Assembly: GCA_024654505.1 (NCBI GenBank)
Contig: JANLHN010000003.1
Location: 167,037-231,036 of the forward strand
Source of the DNA: Nanobdellota archaeon
GTDB taxonomy: Archaea; Nanobdellota; Nanobdellia; Pacearchaeales; GW2011-AR1
DNA length: 64,000 nt
Direction of reading: 5' to 3'
In this document: positions 25,926 to 35,480 of the stretch, in pieces
Numbering within the stretch: position 1 is the stretch's first letter
How the letters are laid out: every line of letters begins with the position of its first letter
The notes under the pieces: model-generated
What the model saw: the letters and a program-made list of their open reading frames with translations, nothing else
Database searches by the model: none
Told to the model about the DNA's origin: nothing
Position numbers and translations under genes: made by a program

Positions 25926-27200
25926 TCATACTTTCACACATCACGACATCCACACACAAAACCAGTAACGACATGAGCTTTACCGCCCATCTCAACACTC
26001 CAGAAACTCGTGGATAAGCAAGATACTTTCAAATGGAAACTTTTGAGAGAATCTATGTGCTAGTCGTGACTGTGTTTCTGAAACAAATGCGTCGGAATAT
26101 CTTAGAAATAAGTGTCTGACGTATGCTCTGATGGTGAAATACGTGTCTTAAGTCACTTAGCTTATACAAAGCGCTGGATGTCTCCTTGAGGGAGGGCTTC
26201 CAGAGAAACGGGGTGTTCCTGTAGTGGCTGTTTTTTGTCGCCCTGATGGTCGGGGTGATTCTTTTTATCGGCTGAGACGAAGGCGTCTCGGGAAGGAGTT
26301 CGCGTGATTAGGATGGGCAACGGACATAGGAGTTCGGAGAAGAAGGAGGGGAAGGTGAAGATAGTGAGGACACCTGCTCCCCCTTCTGATGAGGCACTGC
26401 TTCAGGAGCGGCTGCGCCAGATGGATGTGGCTTCCGGGAAGCTGCCCAGGATGGGGCGGAAGAAGGGGAACAACGGCTTCAACGGGGAGTCGAACGGCCA
26501 GCAGCTAGATGACCCGCTCCGTTCGATGATCCTCCCCAACCACCTCTAGAAGGGAGGGGTGATGGGACGGAAGAAGCAGTGCTATGGGAGAGAGGGAGTC
26601 TGTTTGACTCCTAATTGTCCCTACGCCCTGGGTTGTATCCAGATCTGGGGCAGAGACCGACTCCTTAAGAAGAGGGGAGTTGGGGTAGAACAAAGCGTGC
26701 CGAGGGGCTCGGTGCGTTCCAAGGGCCCGCAGGGCAAAGTGTCCCGGGAAAGAAGAATTGGAGGGAGGATAGTAAGTGAGCAGACCGATTTTCTCAACAC
26801 CATCTCAGATGATGGTGGGACTCCCAGAAGTTAGTGGGGGGAGGAAGGTCTCGGTGGACCGCGCCCTGGAAGTCCTGGGGTTGACGGCATCCACCTTCAG
26901 AGACAAGATACAGAGGGAGGAAGGTTTCGACATGGATAACCTCGTTGCTGGGGGGAAGAAGTTCTCTGCGAAGGGGGCGCCTCTGGCTGGGGGGGAATTC
27001 CTCCTCCGGGTCTTCATCGGAGGAAACATCGAGGCCAGAGTTCTCCTGGACCCTGAACGACAGAGGGTACTCTCAACTCAGGAAGTCCAGATGACTAGAG
27101 AGGGGGTAGTGGCCCTGTAAGAGGTCATGGGCTCCTAGACGGGACGATGCTGGGGGTGTGGGCTAGGGAGGAAGTTCTGCCTACACCCCCAGACAGGCTG
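25926..27200. other. GC-rich (~55%) compositional island with sharp boundaries. It contains 3 short overlapping ORFs in different frames and ends in a hairpin GGGGGTGTGGGC...GCCTACACCCCC
   Basis: Visible base-composition shift relative to the ~33% GC flanks. Candidate ORFs are 26304..26549, 26559..26834 and 26776..27120. Confidence 0.6.
26776..27120 (+). CDS. Possible excisionase/MerR-type HTH DNA-binding protein inside the GC-rich island
   Basis: VSVDRALEVLGLTASTFRDKIQREEGF resembles the excisionase-family helix-turn-helix. The reading frame overlaps the upstream ORF, which suggests possible frameshift decay. Confidence 0.3.
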   Translation: MSRPIFSTPSQMMVGLPEVSGGRKVSVDRALEVLGLTASTFRDKIQREEGFDMDNLVAGGKKFSAKGAPLAGGEFLLRVFIGGNIEARVLLDPERQRVLSTQEVQMTREGVVAL

Positions 27201-27446
27201 ATTTTTTTAGTAATAGGGTCAAGAAAGAAAGGAGAATCTCATGAGTAACAATCTTTGGACCACGTTTGTTTTTTTGTTTTTTTGTTTTTTTTTGCCTTTA
27301 TCTATATACTTTAATATATATGTTGAAGAATATAGGTTGAAAATTGTTTTTTGTTTGAGTTTTTGGGGCTGGCCGCCCCGAATAAAGAATTTGAAGTTTG
27401 TTGGAACCACAACAAACTTTATATAATCCTTGAGATAATCTTTGTT

Positions 27447-29898: not shown

Positions 29899-30744
29899 TT
29901 ACTTTTTTTCTGTTATTTCGTCGACTAAACGAGCCATTTCTCCCAGAAATTTATCGGCTTTCACAAACCAATCATCAATTTGTTTTCCTTCAATAGAAGT
30001 CAATTCTCCATGAATCACCCTCTTTGCTGCATTATGAATCTCAACATAACTATCTACATATTTTTTGTCTAACCTTTTTGTAGAAACAAATTGTTCTAAT
30101 AAATCTTCAGGTACTTTTTCTGGAGATGCTGGAGTAGTTCCTGAAGAGATTAAAGCTGCGTGTGCAGAATCTACCATAGTCCAATAAAGACCATCAACTA
30201 CAGAGAGCATTGCTTGTTTTGCTCTAGTCATATGGTGTGGGGCCCTTTGCAAAAGTGTATAAATTGATTCTGGGGTTGCCTTTATCTTTCCTTCTTTTAA
30301 AAGAACCCTTAAAGGATTAAAAAATCCCCCAATGTCTATTAGAGAGTCACCATATCTTAATACATTCATGACAACTGGGTCTCCTCTTAGTAAATCCTCC
30401 CACCAAGTAGAAAGTTTTACGGTATTTACATGAAGAGGTTTTACGTAAGGATTTATTTGTATAATGTTTCCTAGTTCCTCTCTATACCATGAGATAAGCT
30501 CTTGGTCCCATTTAACAGAAACATCATCTATAATAATCACAATATCAATATCTGATTTTGGAGTGGATGTTTTTTTTGCAGAGGAGCCGAATAGCACTAT
30601 AGATTTTATTAATTGGTCAAATTCTTTGTACACTTTTGTAGCGAAATCTGATGCAATGTCTCTCTCCCTTGCAATAAGAAGAGTTTTGGGTTTCTCTAAA
30701 CTTATGGACTTTCCTCTTTTAGGTTTATCTTTTTTCTTCACCAT
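29899..30744 (-). CDS. Nucleotidyltransferase-domain protein (Pol beta superfamily, kanamycin-NTase-like with helical C-terminal domain)
   Basis: LFGSSAKKTSTPKSDIDIVIIIDD carries the GS...DxD NTase motif. It is a second, shorter paralogue of the 19735 family. Confidence 0.55.
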   Translation of the reverse strand: MVKKKDKPKRGKSISLEKPKTLLIARERDIASDFATKVYKEFDQLIKSIVLFGSSAKKTSTPKSDIDIVIIIDDVSVKWDQELISWYREELGNIIQINPYVKPLHVNTVKLSTWWEDLLRGDPVVMNVLRYGDSLIDIGGFFNPLRVLLKEGKIKATPESIYTLLQRAPHHMTRAKQAMLSVVDGLYWTMVDSAHAALISSGTTPASPEKVPEDLLEQFVSTKRLDKKYVDSYVEIHNAAKRVIHGELTSIEGKQIDDWFVKADKFLGEMARLVDEITEKK

Positions 30745-30784: not shown

Positions 30785-32671
30785 TTAGGACATTGGGGCT
30801 CCTCCAAAACGGGACCTACCCCCAGGCATTTGTCCACCAAGGTCAATTGGCATTGTGGTAAATCCTGCACCATATATAGAGTGGTGTAGTTCTGGATTGA
30901 TTGTCCCATATCCTCCGAAATAACTTCCTTGACCACCTTGGATTTGAGACCAGGCAGGGCCAGCCTTCATTCCATAAATACCACTCCCCATAATCCCAAG
31001 ATTGTGGTGCATAGGGTTACTTTTAAATTGGGCAATGTACCTCCCTCCCCCTTCAATAATTTTCCTCATCTCCTTTAGTCTTCCAGTCTTTTCAAGTTCC
31101 TTTAACATTTCTTTTATAGGTGCTGTTCCCATCCCTGGTGGAAGCTCTGAATCCGAATACCCAAAATTATCTGACAGATGAACATGCTTGACCATGCTCT
31201 TATCTTTAGTCATCACTTTTGTTTGTTCAATTATATCCTTTTCAGAATAACCATGTTTTCTCAAAGTGTTAATATGTCCTACATCCCATGTTGCCCCAAT
31301 ATGTTTTTCAGCTATCTTTATTGCCGCACCCTTACTCATCTTTTTTCCGTTTACCATGTTTTCAACAAAGACTTTTCTTGATTCATTAATCAAATCCCTC
31401 AAACCTTCAGCATCGCTGAAAGCCATGTGTTCTGGAAGATTTTCTATTGTTATAACTGGCGCATTTTTCCCATAATTTTTATAGGCACTAGTAGCCATGT
31501 TCCCAAAAGTTTCTGCAGCTTTTTTTGTTGCATAACTTTGAGCATCAACAAAGATTTTTGGAGCTTCTCCTTTTCTAGTTATATTGTTTAATTTTTCTAT
31601 TGCTCTTTCATGAATTTCTTTTTTTGCAAGAGTATTTGCAACATAGACTCCTCCATTTACATCATGGACATTTTTCATTTGGTTGGAATACTCTATTGAG
31701 AGATTTTTCAATTCTTTTTGTTGTTCTGGAGTTCCATATTTATATGCCTTATCAAAGGCTCCTACAAAATTTAATCTTATATTGTCTAGAAAGATGTCTG
31801 CTTTTTTCAGTTTATTTGCTGCAGCCATTTTATTTTCATCAAAATTTTCGATTGGTTTGTTATTCCTTACATCAAAAACTTTTCCATCACTTCTTATAAA
31901 TGCATTTTCAGATCCCCTTAGGTCTTCTCTAGCCGTTCCTATGACCTCCCCAATTTGTTTGTCTACACTAGCTAATTCTGTCATTTTAGATTCCCAATTT
32001 GTTACATTAACAGCATCTAATTGGTCCTTTGCATAATAGGGTTTTCCTCCCTTGTCTAAAAGGTCTGGGCGTTCTGGTCTAAATTTATTTTCTGTTTCAA
32101 GGGCTGTTGCCTGACCTGTTTCAAGATTTATTGCAGTAGACTTTTCTAGGATTTTGATTCTATTCCCTTTCTCGTCTTCCCTAAATCCATATCTTCTTCC
32201 AGGAACAGAACTAGATGCATGAAATACTACTGGAGTATTTCCTTTAGGGTCTAAATCATGAGCTTTCTCGATAGACTGAAACATTCTTCTCTCATTTGAT
32301 TTTCTTTCAGATTCTCCTCCAGTCCAGCCTGCCTGCCCAAAGCCGGAAGGGTCTACCATAATATTACCATGAACAGAAGGTTTGACTCCAGACAATCTCA
32401 TTAAAGCACGCATTTCAGCAAAATGTTGTTTTGGGATAGATTGGTCCAAGTCATTCATCCCAAGAATACTAACCTCAAAAGTTTTTGTTCCTGATTTTAT
32501 GGCATTAACTGTGTCCATAAGCTGATTTGCAGTTTGTGCCGAACCTGGAAAACCAACATTGACTGGAGAGATTCCATATCCTTCACTTTGTTCTCCGAAT
32601 CCCCCAAAATAAGAGGGGTTAAATGAAGACCCACCCCCACCATAAAACGACTCGTAACTTTCTTTTCCCAT
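30785..32671 (-). CDS. Xylose-isomerase-like TIM-barrel (AP-endonuclease-2 / sugar-phosphate isomerase-epimerase fold) protein. It has a ~250-aa central insertion and Gly/Tyr-rich low-complexity termini
   Basis: N-proximal FEVSILGMNDLD...VVFHAS and C-proximal WDVGHINTL...VKHVHLSDNFGYSDSELPPGMGTAPIKEMLKELEKTG match the conserved first and last strands of the AP_endonuc_2 barrel. Termini are SFYGGGGSSFNPSYFGGFG and GSYFGGYG...GGRSRFGGAPMS. Confidence 0.5.
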   Translation of the reverse strand: MGKESYESFYGGGGSSFNPSYFGGFGEQSEGYGISPVNVGFPGSAQTANQLMDTVNAIKSGTKTFEVSILGMNDLDQSIPKQHFAEMRALMRLSGVKPSVHGNIMVDPSGFGQAGWTGGESERKSNERRMFQSIEKAHDLDPKGNTPVVFHASSSVPGRRYGFREDEKGNRIKILEKSTAINLETGQATALETENKFRPERPDLLDKGGKPYYAKDQLDAVNVTNWESKMTELASVDKQIGEVIGTAREDLRGSENAFIRSDGKVFDVRNNKPIENFDENKMAAANKLKKADIFLDNIRLNFVGAFDKAYKYGTPEQQKELKNLSIEYSNQMKNVHDVNGGVYVANTLAKKEIHERAIEKLNNITRKGEAPKIFVDAQSYATKKAAETFGNMATSAYKNYGKNAPVITIENLPEHMAFSDAEGLRDLINESRKVFVENMVNGKKMSKGAAIKIAEKHIGATWDVGHINTLRKHGYSEKDIIEQTKVMTKDKSMVKHVHLSDNFGYSDSELPPGMGTAPIKEMLKELEKTGRLKEMRKIIEGGGRYIAQFKSNPMHHNLGIMGSGIYGMKAGPAWSQIQGGQGSYFGGYGTINPELHHSIYGAGFTTMPIDLGGQMPGGRSRFGGAPMS

Positions 32672-32716
32672 ATATCACCTGTTAAATTGAAGAGAGAAGA
32701 TTATATAAAACTAGTG

Positions 32717-33379
32717 TTAAACTGTTCTCTCCCCAGAATATTTATTATCAAATTCACTCTCAGAAGAGATTTTAAGAGATTTTGCGGACCGTAACCCCTT
32801 AACCTCTAAACTAGAATGTCTTTTAGACATGATAAAATCATTCTCTAGAGGATTGGGTTGATTTAATTTCGGAACATAAAAATCGCTCCCTATCTTAGGA
32901 CCACTATAAACGTCTTGTCCATCTCCTTGACCAGAGTTATATTGATTTGTTTTTCCATCCCGCTTATTAGGCGTAGCCCCATAAGAAGAATCCCTTTGAT
33001 TGGAGGAATTTGAATAAAAATCTGTGGGGTCTCTTTTTCCTGAGTAGAAGTCTCTACCTCCTTGCCCCCCATTTTCTACTAATCTCTCAAATGAATCGTA
33101 GGGTTGTTCCTCTTTTTCTTTTTCTTCCTCTTCTTCTTGTGGCCCTTCTTTTATTATTTCTTCTACAATAACTTCTTCAAGATTCTTTAGTTTTGGCCCT
33201 TTATAATTGGGGATTACTGAAAGTATTGAATCGCTAAAAGAAAAATCTTTTTCTTGCGAAGAATCTTCTTGTTTTTTTTGTTCTTTTGGTGGTTCTTTTT
33301 GTTTTTCTTGTTTTTTTTCTTTATCCTTTTCGTTCTTCTTTTTAACAATTATTTTGTCCTTCTTATTTGCATTCTTCAT
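32717..33379 (-). CDS. Low-complexity protein. The N-terminal half is KE-rich and the C-terminal half carries G/S/D-rich DFYS repeats
   Basis: KKDKIIVKKKNEKDKEKKQEKQKEPPKEQKKQED followed by GGQGGRDFYSGKRDPTDFYSNSS...GQGDGQDVYSGPKIGSDFYV. Confidence 0.4.
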   Translation of the reverse strand: MKNANKKDKIIVKKKNEKDKEKKQEKQKEPPKEQKKQEDSSQEKDFSFSDSILSVIPNYKGPKLKNLEEVIVEEIIKEGPQEEEEEKEKEEQPYDSFERLVENGGQGGRDFYSGKRDPTDFYSNSSNQRDSSYGATPNKRDGKTNQYNSGQGDGQDVYSGPKIGSDFYVPKLNQPNPLENDFIMSKRHSSLEVKGLRSAKSLKISSESEFDNKYSGERTV

Positions 33380-33452
33380 GAAGATTAAATAGAACTATAG
33401 TTTATCTATTTTATTATTCAAGGATTAACCTTTCTTTCAATGGACAGAGAGA

Positions 33453-35012
33453 TTATACGTTCGGTTCTTTGGTTTTCTCTTCATCCGCATTTTCAAATGG
33501 TTCTGCAGAAGATGCCATCCCATGGGCTTTTTTATAGATATCATAAACATTGTATAACCAATCTGATGCGGCTAGTGCTGCATCTGCACGAACCGATTTT
33601 TCTACAAAATTATCTTTTTTCACATTCTTTATATCTATAATGTTTTTCTTCTTTCCATCACTCTTTTTTTCTTTTTTCTTGAATAACCCAAACAAAGCAG
33701 TGAAAGGATTGATATCATCTTCGGCTTTTTTCTTTTCTTCTTTGTCTTCCTTTTTTTCTAAGAAATGTTCAAGGTCTTCTCTTAGTTCCTCTAGAGCCTC
33801 TGCTGCAACATCTCCAGAAAACTTTAAACTATCTAAGGCGTCTTGGTTCTTTAGTTTGTCCATAATTATCTTAACTTCTTCTTCATTGAGAGAATAAGCA
33901 TCAAAGTCCATATCTACTCTCCCACCCATAGCAAAACCATAATCTCCCTTTTGGGTTACTCTTTGAGAAACATGACCTCTATATTTAAGGTTTATAACAA
34001 TACATTGATAGTACTTCCTCTTCAATTTATAATCTCCAAATTTTGGGTCTGGCTTTACTTCTTTCTTTCCAAAAAGGGTTAACTCAAACATAGAAGTACT
34101 GAATGCATTTACCAGGGCGGCATTTCCATCAAATCCTTTCTGTCTTAGTTCTTCTGCGGCCTTAAGGTAAGGCTTCATCCAAGATGAATAAAGTTTTATT
34201 GTTTCTATTTGGCTTTTTAAATAACTCTTTTCTATACTAAATCTTTTTCTCATTTCTTTTTCAGAATAGTCCATCCATTTGAGAAATTCACTTAAACGAG
34301 GAACTAAAATTCTGTATACTTGGTCATTAATTACTGCTCCCCCCTTTTCGCTTTTCATGTTCTCTAAATCTTTCTGATTGTTTGCAACCATGAATGCTTC
34401 TCTTAGAGTTGTGTAACCCATTTCCATAGTGGCTAATTGATGTATTGCTCCACGTCCCCTTTTCATATCAACGTTATCAAGCCAAATTTGTTTTAATGCC
34501 AATATTCCTGACTCTCTTTTCTTTGGGTCTTTGGATTTGGCGTCGTCATAATGTTCTAACCTTATCTCAAATTCTTTTAAGTCATATATTAGGTTTAAGA
34601 CAGATTTTATTACAGTATTCACATCTGCCAAAATTTTTATTCCTTTGTCTTGCATGAGAGCTACTTTTTGGCCCATCTCAGAAAAATGTCCGGAACCGGG
34701 ACTAGAAACAAAATTATCTGTTAGTTTTTCCATAGTCCAACCAGCATCTTGAACAAAATCTAGGAGCCAATAGTAAATAGGTTCTAGTTGGGATTGTTGA
34801 GAATCAAAATGAATCTTGTAATTCGCGATGGAGTTTGCTGGAAATGTATATCCCCCGTCTTTTTGTTTGTCTTCTTTATATTTTTTTAAAATACCTTCTA
34901 CACCCTCAGAATCTACAAGTTTTTTGAATTTTGATAAATCACTCCCCCCTTTACTGTAGTACATTTCGGGATTAACTGCTGTTATTGCGACTTTTACCTC
35001 TTCTGCGCTCAT
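33453..35012 (-). CDS. Hypothetical protein (519 aa) with acidic/Lys-rich C-terminal tail
   Basis: The start was trimmed to MSAEEVKV at 35012. The upstream part of the tracked ORF reads through the promoter, and TTTATATAT lies 22-30 nt upstream of this ATG. No recognisable family. Confidence 0.5.
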   Translation of the reverse strand: MSAEEVKVAITAVNPEMYYSKGGSDLSKFKKLVDSEGVEGILKKYKEDKQKDGGYTFPANSIANYKIHFDSQQSQLEPIYYWLLDFVQDAGWTMEKLTDNFVSSPGSGHFSEMGQKVALMQDKGIKILADVNTVIKSVLNLIYDLKEFEIRLEHYDDAKSKDPKKRESGILALKQIWLDNVDMKRGRGAIHQLATMEMGYTTLREAFMVANNQKDLENMKSEKGGAVINDQVYRILVPRLSEFLKWMDYSEKEMRKRFSIEKSYLKSQIETIKLYSSWMKPYLKAAEELRQKGFDGNAALVNAFSTSMFELTLFGKKEVKPDPKFGDYKLKRKYYQCIVINLKYRGHVSQRVTQKGDYGFAMGGRVDMDFDAYSLNEEEVKIIMDKLKNQDALDSLKFSGDVAAEALEELREDLEHFLEKKEDKEEKKKAEDDINPFTALFGLFKKKEKKSDGKKKNIIDIKNVKKDNFVEKSVRADAALAASDWLYNVYDIYKKAHGMASSAEPFENADEEKTKEPNV

Positions 35013-35033
35013 AATCAATAAGAGAATAACGAA

Positions 35034-35042
35034 TATATAAAC
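35034..35042 (-). promoter_or_regulatory. TATA box (TTTATATAT on the minus strand) for the 33453..35012 gene, leaderless spacing
   Basis: Centred ~26 nt upstream of the ATG at 35012. Confidence 0.5.
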
Positions 35043-35108
35043 GTTTTTAACAAACTTTAAATAAACCCTTTGCGTTTTTGTTTTATGATATTCGGGAAGA
35101 AAAAACGA

Positions 35109-35480
35109 ATGATTGATGTTAGAGAACTCCAGAGAAGAGGAGTTGTACATATTCCAAAAGAGGAAATTGTAATCCCTACAGATAAGGAGGGTTTTGTTGA
35201 ATTTGGGAGAGGAAGTAAGGCACAAATAGCAAGCCCATCAAAACAGAGTTCTTCTAGTTCGGGGAATTTTTTTGGGTTTATGGATTCTTCCTCTTCGAGT
35301 AGTTCTTCTTCAAATTCCTTTGGAACCGAAGCAGAGGGCTATAATAAAAGGGAGGTTGATTCTAAGATAATTGGGTTAGACAATAAGATTTACAAACTTG
35401 AACAGAGGATTGAGCTACTTGAGAGAAAACTAGATGTTAACCGTCCAACGGACTCTAATACAGGTGTTATGGGGTGGTAG
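35109..35480 (+). CDS. Hypothetical protein with Ser-rich linker and C-terminal coiled coil
   Basis: The tracked ORF begins at a TTG (35070). ATG candidates are at 35085 and 35109 (MIDVRELQRRGVVHIPKEE). Contains SSSSSGNFFGFMDSSSSSSSSSNSFG, then KIYKLEQRIELLERKL. Confidence 0.4.
   Translation: MIDVRELQRRGVVHIPKEEIVIPTDKEGFVEFGRGSKAQIASPSKQSSSSSGNFFGFMDSSSSSSSSSNSFGTEAEGYNKREVDSKIIGLDNKIYKLEQRIELLERKLDVNRPTDSNTGVMGW

Follow-up and report, generated by a model that had tools for sequence, protein, structure and literature searches.

The closest described relatives of the locus analyzed here belong to a very well-studied superfamily, the xylose-isomerase-like triosephosphate isomerase (TIM) barrels of Pfam family PF01261 (AP_endonuc_2). 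MJ1311 of the archaeon Methanocaldococcus jannaschii, named a 'D-tagatose 3-epimerase-like protein' (structure 3WQO), is a plain barrel of ~290 amino acids (aa); it reportedly keeps the nine zinc ligands of endonuclease IV (Endo IV) and is said to be without its DNA-binding groove. The D-tagatose, D-psicose/allulose and L-ribulose 3-epimerases are likewise ~290 aa long and use a single metal with an E-D-H-E metal/catalytic set, while in classical xylose isomerase a C-terminal arm embraces the neighbouring subunit. We have analyzed a window of 64,000 nucleotides (nt) from a Nanobdellota archaeon (assembly GCA_024654505.1, contig JANLHN010000003.1, positions 167,037 to 231,036 of the forward strand), in which a gene at 30785..32671 (-; stop codon included) encodes a 628-aa member of this superfamily. 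By its predicted structure the protein is a xylose-isomerase-like (PF01261) TIM barrel whose nearest solved relative is the archaeal MJ1311. Its family departs in architecture from every characterised PF01261 member by an insertion of ~220 aa after strand β3 and by two conserved terminal extensions of ~64 and ~88 aa, none of which is present in MJ1311. With slightly better than even confidence, we read the gene as one for a constrained PF01261-type metalloenzyme, provided with a lid and with tails of fixed motifs, that lies within a core gene array of tiny, symbiotic DPANN archaea of the Pacearchaeota/Woesearchaeota type.

The Pfam match covers residues 433-530 of the 628-aa protein (expected value (E-value) 1e-8, 35.6 bits against a cut-off of 31.1), and the same domain was found in all of the 34 aligned homologues (best E-value 3.8e-16). 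An AlphaFold model computed from a 34-sequence alignment has a predicted local distance difference test (pLDDT) score of 71 overall and of 80-98 in the core. The best Foldseek match of this model is MJ1311 (probability 1.00, target template-modelling score 0.60-0.63, ~510 columns), and since the alignment to 3WQO runs across both halves of the protein, both belong to one barrel in the model. Ketose 3-epimerases come next in the Foldseek list, followed by endonuclease IV (1QUM, E-value 0.044). MJ1311 is also the sole relevant sequence match when the family profile is compared with solved proteins (E-value 6.1e-8, query residues 462-541 to chain residues 180-252). The motifs GxTWDxGH and HxHxxDNxGYxDxHLxxGxGN align between the two proteins, the shared elements being GxT(W/F)DxGH, HxHxxDNxGYxDxHL and xGxGN. 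The N-terminal half of the barrel (the VVFHAS region) gave no detectable sequence match to MJ1311 or to any other solved structure.

Predicted strands were located at residues 64-68 (β1), 97-101 (β2), 148-151 (β3), 407-410 (β4), 458-463 (β5), 494-500 (β6) and 536-540 (β8). The first part of the barrel, comprising β1-β3, extends over residues 65-154 (32210..32479, -), as judged from predicted secondary structure, the fold match and the invariance of E66, H101 and H151; the second part, from helix α3 to β8, extends over residues 377-540 (31052..31543, -) and includes both the Pfam match and the profile match to MJ1311. A first-pass annotation, made from the letters of the window and a list of its open reading frames (ORFs), had proposed a split barrel formed by the first and last ~120 aa around an insertion of ~250 aa. 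Structure prediction did return a TIM barrel, and a split one, but its halves lie further in from the termini than was supposed and the insertion is shorter.

This insertion occupies residues 155-376 (31544..32209, -), between β3 and α3. It consists of β-hairpins and long helices, is mostly helical, and is modelled with confidence (pLDDT 80-95). Conservation was expressed as the mean majority-residue conservation per segment over 81 non-identical sequences from 82 related loci, with identities down to 34%; by this measure the insertion is the least conserved segment of the protein (0.40), and the alignment shows lineage-variable sub-insertions within it. No Pfam domain was found in the insertion in any of the 34 homologues. 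Because the predicted strands place it between β3 and α3, it sits on the catalytic face of the modelled barrel, and we infer that it is a putative lid over that face.

Ten His, Asp and Glu residues (E66, H101, H151, E410, D463, H466, H496, H498, D501 and E540) are the same in all 81 sequences; they fall where strands β1-β6 and β8 are predicted to end. Among them is the PF01261-type ligand set: E410 on β4, D463 on β5, H496/H498 on β6 and E540 on β8. A further pair, at positions 507-509, reads D-x-H in 67 of the 81 sequences and H-T-E in 11, a swap that retains one carboxylate and one imidazole. The nine ligands of Escherichia coli Nfo (H69, H109, E145, D179, H182, H216, D229, H231 and E261), whose residue types and local motifs were checked in the fetched nfo gene, have counterparts in strand order in the family consensus at H101, H151, E410, D463, H466, H498, D507, H509 and E540, in a mapping by motif and predicted strand made without superposition. 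The Nfo motifs FHPG, IEN, DTCH, HLND, DRH and LILE are paralleled in the family by FHAS, IEN, DVGH, HLSD, D(S/T)H and IIEG. Since the invariant residues reproduce the nine Endo IV ligand types in strand order, the 628-aa protein is probably an active enzyme.

The two terminal extensions are no less constrained than the barrel between them. The N-terminal extension (residues 1-64; 32480..32671, -) carries the conserved motif SYExFYxGG..SSLSPDYGN.TGYRMSAAQLGFPGSPQTANQL and the C-terminal extension (residues 541-628; 30788..31051, -) the motif GSPIYGMK.GP.WNQ...QG.YFGGYGTLNPQ.HHSYFGAGFTTMPVELGGQMPGGQSRFGGTPMA. Both are 26-27% Gly (27% in the N-terminal one), with Gly, Ser, Tyr and Phe dominant, much as the first-pass annotation had described their composition. 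Mean conservation is 0.57 in the N-tail and 0.66 in the C-tail, compared with 0.62 and 0.66 in the two barrel halves; many positions within both tails are invariant, and every homologue retains both. A HMMER search of 1.84 billion (1.84e9) representative proteins with the 88-residue C-tail returned 226 proteins. In all but one of the 150 matches listed the C-tail stood at, or a few residues from, the C-terminus, and 52 of 52 short matches were collinear fragments of the barrel family. As the matches are confined to the barrel family, the C-tail is a family-specific part and not a portable module. Because position-by-position conservation of the tails equals that of the barrel, and because the C-tail was found in no other family, the tails do not appear to be the free low-complexity sequence, similar to phenylalanine-glycine (FG) repeats, for which they had been taken. 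Conserved segments that AlphaFold cannot place would most simply be ordered only within an oligomer or complex. The arm of classical xylose isomerase, a superfamily barrel whose terminal arm is ordered only by inter-subunit contacts, offers a possible model by analogy, although that arm is unrelated in sequence and in the 628-aa family both termini are extended and rich in Gly and aromatic residues.

A homologue search with the 628-aa protein returned 558 clusters, of which the best 120 are 599-668 aa long and share 43-52% identity over 92-100% of the query. Database names of these 120 are only "sugar phosphate isomerase/epimerase", "TIM barrel protein" or "hypothetical"; the annotation of the family reflects the resemblance of its fold and E-D-H-E set to those of the ketose 3-epimerases. 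With one genome taken per GTDB species, the barrel gene was found in at least 586 genomes. The 80 loci among the matches listed are labelled Pacearchaeota, Woesearchaeota, Nanoarchaeota or "archaeon", with one Patescibacteria. The barrel gene is thus a strongly conserved chromosomal core gene of Pacearchaeota/Woesearchaeota-type DPANN archaea, and its retention in so many species with very small genomes makes it likely that it serves a function these cells cannot lose. We found no paper that links DPANN archaea with the barrel family or that describes the protein families treated here. A 2026 Nanobdellota preprint mentions a few uncharacterised, phylum-specific conserved orthologues, which it does not name. 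A search for MJ1311 orthologues with a 73-aa MJ1311 fragment returned a single 117-aa fragment. The locus labelled 'Patescibacteria group bacterium' (JBNMFJ010000015.1) encodes a full-length member of the barrel family with 42% identity, and is probably a mis-binned DPANN contig.

The barrel gene is the third of four co-directional genes. In order of transcription these encode a 519-aa protein, here called p519 (33453..35012, -), a 220-aa charged low-complexity protein (32717..33379, -), the barrel protein, and a 281-aa Polβ-type nucleotidyltransferase (29899..30744, -) that the first-pass annotation had left outside its cluster; a small coiled-coil gene is divergent upstream (35085..35480, +). 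The ORF map otherwise agrees with that annotation, which had described three minus-strand genes and one divergent gene and had pointed out the clustering of the barrel with low-complexity proteins. Intergenic gaps between the minus-strand genes are short: 73 nt between p519 and the 220-aa gene, 45 nt between the latter and the barrel gene, and 40 nt between the barrel and nucleotidyltransferase genes. GC content in the region is 0.35-0.36, equal to that of the flanks. The ORFs are not chance ones: for each of the proteins, many related genomes encode a homologue or a counterpart in the equivalent position.

Conservation of the array was assessed in loci with at least 7 kb of flanking sequence (52 upstream, 53 downstream and 46 on both sides). 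Upstream of the barrel gene p519 is present in 44 of 52 loci (85%), and the nucleotidyltransferase follows downstream in 48 of 53 (91%). Two comparison genes are kept less often, glutamyl-tRNA synthetase (GluRS) in 35 of 52 loci (67%) and phosphoenolpyruvate (PEP) synthase in 23 of 53 (43%). Where both flanks could be scored, p519 and the nucleotidyltransferase occur together in 38 of the 46 loci, are both absent from 5, and only 3 loci have one of the two. The order p519, a 196-aa ORF, barrel and nucleotidyltransferase recurs on a marine contig (L084), found through p519 homologues, whose flanks are completely different; the same order is kept in a hot-spring genome and, despite an inserted gene, in locus L017. 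That inserted gene (L017 8128-9273, -) separates the genes for p519 and the acidic protein and is read from the opposite strand. It is GC-rich and encodes 381 aa, with a hydrophobic N-terminus and with repeats rich in Gly and Cys. An RNA had at first been considered for this GC-rich island, a reading dropped once the inserted protein gene was recognised there.

How a metalloenzyme of this architecture might work can be sketched as follows. A bi- or tri-nuclear metal site, similar to that of Endo IV or MJ1311, would activate water or a substrate hydroxyl. The ~220-residue lid would limit access to a small or end-type substrate and would exclude duplex DNA. The Gly/Tyr/Phe-rich tails may become ordered on contact, as inter-subunit arms or as docking peptides for a partner. 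The most likely chemistry would be hydrolysis of a phosphoester, possibly in a nucleotidylated product of the neighbouring nucleotidyltransferase. Our best guess on function is a capped metal-dependent phosphoesterase or isomerase, and identification of the substrate would give a function to the MJ1311-type branch of the superfamily and could expose a lineage-specific process in organisms that cannot yet be grown alone. At present the array is a well-defined, clade-wide target, and no new or surprising mechanism has been demonstrated.

Several observations weigh against this reading. The copy in the window reads D-S-E at positions 507-509 (31145-31153, -), the sole such sequence among the 81. 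Glu here replaces the near-invariant His509, at the position equivalent to H231 of Nfo, which leaves this copy with eight of the nine Nfo ligand residue types by the mapping from motifs and predicted strands; a metal ligand may thus have changed. An hhalign comparison of the family alignment with E. coli Nfo found no relation (probability 0.8% over 17 columns), so that the assignment of ligands rests on motifs and predicted strands. The conserved loop 501-516 has a pLDDT below 50, as have both tails, and genuine disorder would give the same scores. Since the top fold matches after MJ1311 are ketose 3-epimerases, the fold would suit isomerase chemistry just as well. As for the array, three Woesearchaeota (L028 7364-11872, L029 7329-11947 and L033 7333-11881) have the barrel gene directly after genes for proteasome-β and a 629-aa aCPSF1-like protein, on the same strand and without the other array members, and a TATA-like AT-rich box precedes each array gene, in every intergenic gap. 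The barrel proteins of the three Woesearchaeota retain both tails.

The array need not reflect any common function. It could be gene order inherited among related small genomes, with the barrel enzyme acting by itself beside functionally unrelated neighbours. Many loci also keep two clearly unrelated genes, those for GluRS and PEP synthase, in synteny, and both the TATA-like boxes and the three Woesearchaeota loci fit such an explanation. Because some Woesearchaeota have the barrel gene outside the array, the coupling is not obligatory. The boxes themselves are uninformative in a genome of 35% GC, and an attempt to derive the operon structure from them was dropped. Simple inheritance of order does not account well for the more frequent retention of p519 and the nucleotidyltransferase than of GluRS and PEP synthase, for the presence or absence of the two together, or for the survival of the array through a change of both flanks in L084 and an insertion in L017, with gaps of only 40-73 nt in the window. 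We consider inherited order possible but on the unlikely side, and regard it as rather probable that the array is a functional unit, if not an obligatory one.

The constrained metalloenzyme that we favour must also be weighed against a more conventional assignment, a sugar or sugar-phosphate isomerase/epimerase with a single metal in an E-D-H-E site, in which insertion and tails serve oligomerisation only. Database names, the fold matches to D-tagatose, D-allulose and L-ribulose 3-epimerases and the invariance of E410, D463, H496/498 and E540 all agree with this assignment; there is in addition a weak NCBIfam match to fructoselysine 3-epimerase, and 23 of 53 loci have PEP synthase close by. 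The ketose 3-epimerases, however, lack the lid and the Gly/aromatic extensions, and fold alignments to them show 8-16% identity. Invariant H101, H151, H466 and D501, together with the D-x-H pair, would be superfluous in a single-metal epimerase site. No carbohydrate-pathway genes are found among the neighbours, which instead encode p519, the Polβ nucleotidyltransferase and the disordered protein. We hold a plain isomerase of this kind to be unlikely, yet a serious alternative.

A nuclease is less probable again. That the 628-aa protein is the endonuclease IV of its lineage, an AP endonuclease/3'-repair diesterase acting on DNA and bearing extra segments, is suggested by the presence of all nine Nfo ligand residue types in order in the family consensus, by the inclusion of endonuclease IV in PF01261 and by 1QUM among the fold matches. 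The hhalign comparison, however, gave no homology by profile, and none of the 81 family members matches any of three Endo IV signature patterns, of which Nfo itself matches two. The nearest relative is MJ1311, and the 220-aa insertion lies on the face used by Endo IV for DNA binding. If MJ1311 is, as is said, without a DNA-binding groove, this too speaks against a nuclease. We judge the assignment improbable; the protein passes for an Endo IV in no sequence test and is no standard enzyme of that type, and its architecture is both real and unusual.

In contrast to an enzyme with constrained tails, the tails could be disordered, low-complexity sequence of FG or prion-like type, and the barrel and its neighbours a module that forms a condensate or scaffold. 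The tails do share a strong compositional bias with such domains, being rich in Gly and aromatic residues, and their pLDDT is below 50; the adjacent 220-aa protein is fast-evolving, charged and repeat-bearing, and the divergent gene encodes a poly-Ser linker with an FFGF motif. Unlike FG or prion-like domains, the tails keep their positions and are without arrays of short motifs, whereas the 220-aa neighbour does carry a repeat array. Their conservation is as strong as that of the catalytic barrel across sequences with identities down to 34%, and their local sequence entropy (2.57 and 2.86 bits) lies little below the 2.99 bits of the core. The N-tail and C-tail share no repeat beyond composition: the proposal that they are copies of one motif (ΩΩGG..NP..Y.G) was rejected, as its score was not above that of composition-matched shuffles, and with the C-tail motif profile 18.5% of real N-tails exceed the 95th percentile of shuffles, which is barely above shuffled sequence. 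The invariant catalytic residues, moreover, point to an enzyme and not merely to a scaffold. Little probability can be given to a condensate on this evidence.

An origin as a structural module of a virus or mobile element, or as a cell-surface module, for which nothing beyond the unusual composition spoke, is effectively refuted: there are no matches to phage (PHROG) or defence (PADLOC) families for the four proteins, no relatives of the barrel family in 2.9 million viral contigs (IMG/VR) and no BFVD match for the p519 model, GC content does not differ from that of the flanks, the barrel gene belongs to the chromosomal core of at least 586 species and stands next to housekeeping genes, and no signal-peptide-like stretch or hydrophobic segment of transmembrane strength was found (maximum Kyte-Doolittle average over 19 residues, 1.24).

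Among the neighbours, p519 is very conserved. Homologues of 53-73% identity fall into more than 1922 clusters, and they support the ATG start of the gene; conservation of the protein is roughly on a par with that of glutamyl-tRNA synthetase (57-73% identity). No Pfam domain was found among the homologues and no PDB sequence match for p519. The AlphaFold model (pLDDT 66) combines a β-sheet with a long helical hairpin (residues 111-158 and 230-289), and no meaningful fold match to it was found in the PDB or BFVD. A linker rich in Lys and Glu is followed by a conserved C-terminal helix and the acidic tail that had been noticed in the first-pass annotation. Within this variable linker the short hydrophobic motif DINPFxALFGLF (residues ~434-445) is strictly conserved and resembles an amphipathic or docking peptide. 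p519 is a new family without a recognisable relative by sequence or fold.

The 220-aa protein has a Lys/Glu-rich N-terminus, six Tyr-centred repeats of the form D/x-Φ-Y-[SGN] (RDFYSGK, TDFYSNS, DSSYGAT, TNQYNSG, QDVYSGP and SDFYVPK) and a C-terminal SSLEVKGL motif, in keeping with its earlier description as KE-rich with DFYS-type repeats. A tblastn search of the 82 loci with this protein gave no match at 1e-5. In 68 related loci an ORF of 155-334 aa lies directly upstream of the barrel gene, and its product is charged and acidic in most. An iterative hidden Markov model (HMM) joins 27 of 69 such upstream-ORF sequences, the one in the window included, in a family whose consensus is acidic at the N-terminus, repeats the D-Φ-Y motif and carries R.S.LE..G[FL] at the C-terminus. 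The motif Φ-Y-[GSND] was counted 109 times where shuffles gave 29±5, and D-Φ-Y 63 times where they gave 8±3. Of the proteins in the cluster, only this one behaves as a genuinely disordered, fast-evolving sequence.

The nucleotidyltransferase matches PF01909 (E-value 4.8e-10) through an N-terminal domain of kanamycin-nucleotidyltransferase/MntA type with a GS...DID motif; its C-terminal 180 residues are without a family assignment. It shares this Polβ-fold domain and the GS...DxD motif with the kanamycin nucleotidyltransferase and MntA types, although its matches to the models for MntA, ANT(4'), kanamycin nucleotidyltransferase and the PADLOC nucleotidyltransferases are all below threshold. Unlike toxin-antitoxin or resistance genes, it is a conserved core gene, with 52-74% identity across loci. 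Of all the neighbours it is the one most faithfully linked to the barrel gene.

The divergent ORF spans 35070-35480 (+), and its homologues point to the ATG at 35085 as the probable start, which gives a protein of 131 aa. In this protein a basic motif (MxFKKKKxMIDxRELQKRGVVRIP) marks the N-terminus and GxMGW the C-terminus, with a Ser-rich linker that contains FFGF and a short coiled coil in between; linker and coiled coil had both been noted in the first-pass annotation. Homologues are present in 32 loci, and a profile search of the PDB returned generic coiled coils alone (GCN4-pII type). Identity with DivIVA was considered and rejected: the NCBIfam DivIVA-related model scores 23 bits against a cut-off of 55, the Pfam DivIVA model matches 2 of 22 members (E-value 0.007), and the PDB matches are generic coiled coils.

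The repeats and the nucleotidyltransferase together invite a bolder speculation, to which we give only a small chance. The four-gene array might be a new DPANN-specific system in which the nucleotidyltransferase would write, and the barrel phosphoesterase erase, nucleotidyl groups on the tyrosines of the D-Φ-Y-[GSN] repeats and/or of the barrel protein's own Tyr-rich tails, the whole being organised on p519, which would be a protein of new fold. In a looser version, p519 and the motif-bearing proteins would be a new cytoplasmic assembly or cytoskeletal system of ultra-small cells.

Additional genes accompany the array in some relatives. An extra gene of 199-330 aa without a Pfam domain follows the nucleotidyltransferase on the opposite strand in L001 (10103-10738), L002, L084 and L085, and in one relative a PF01168 (Ala_racemase_N) gene lies between the barrel and nucleotidyltransferase genes; neither is present in the window. 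Elsewhere in the window, an island of ~1 kb at 26230-27210 (+) has a GC content of 55-62% in a genome of 35% GC; a 635-aa ATPase-like ORF flanks it on one side and the PEP synthase gene on the other. No Rfam match was found for it even at E ≤ 1, and no similar sequence in the 82 related loci. Its longest ORF is at most 114 aa, the plus strand has a folding z score of -4.2 compared with -2.2 for the minus strand, and a strong terminal hairpin is followed by U7; the island is a candidate for a large structured non-coding RNA.

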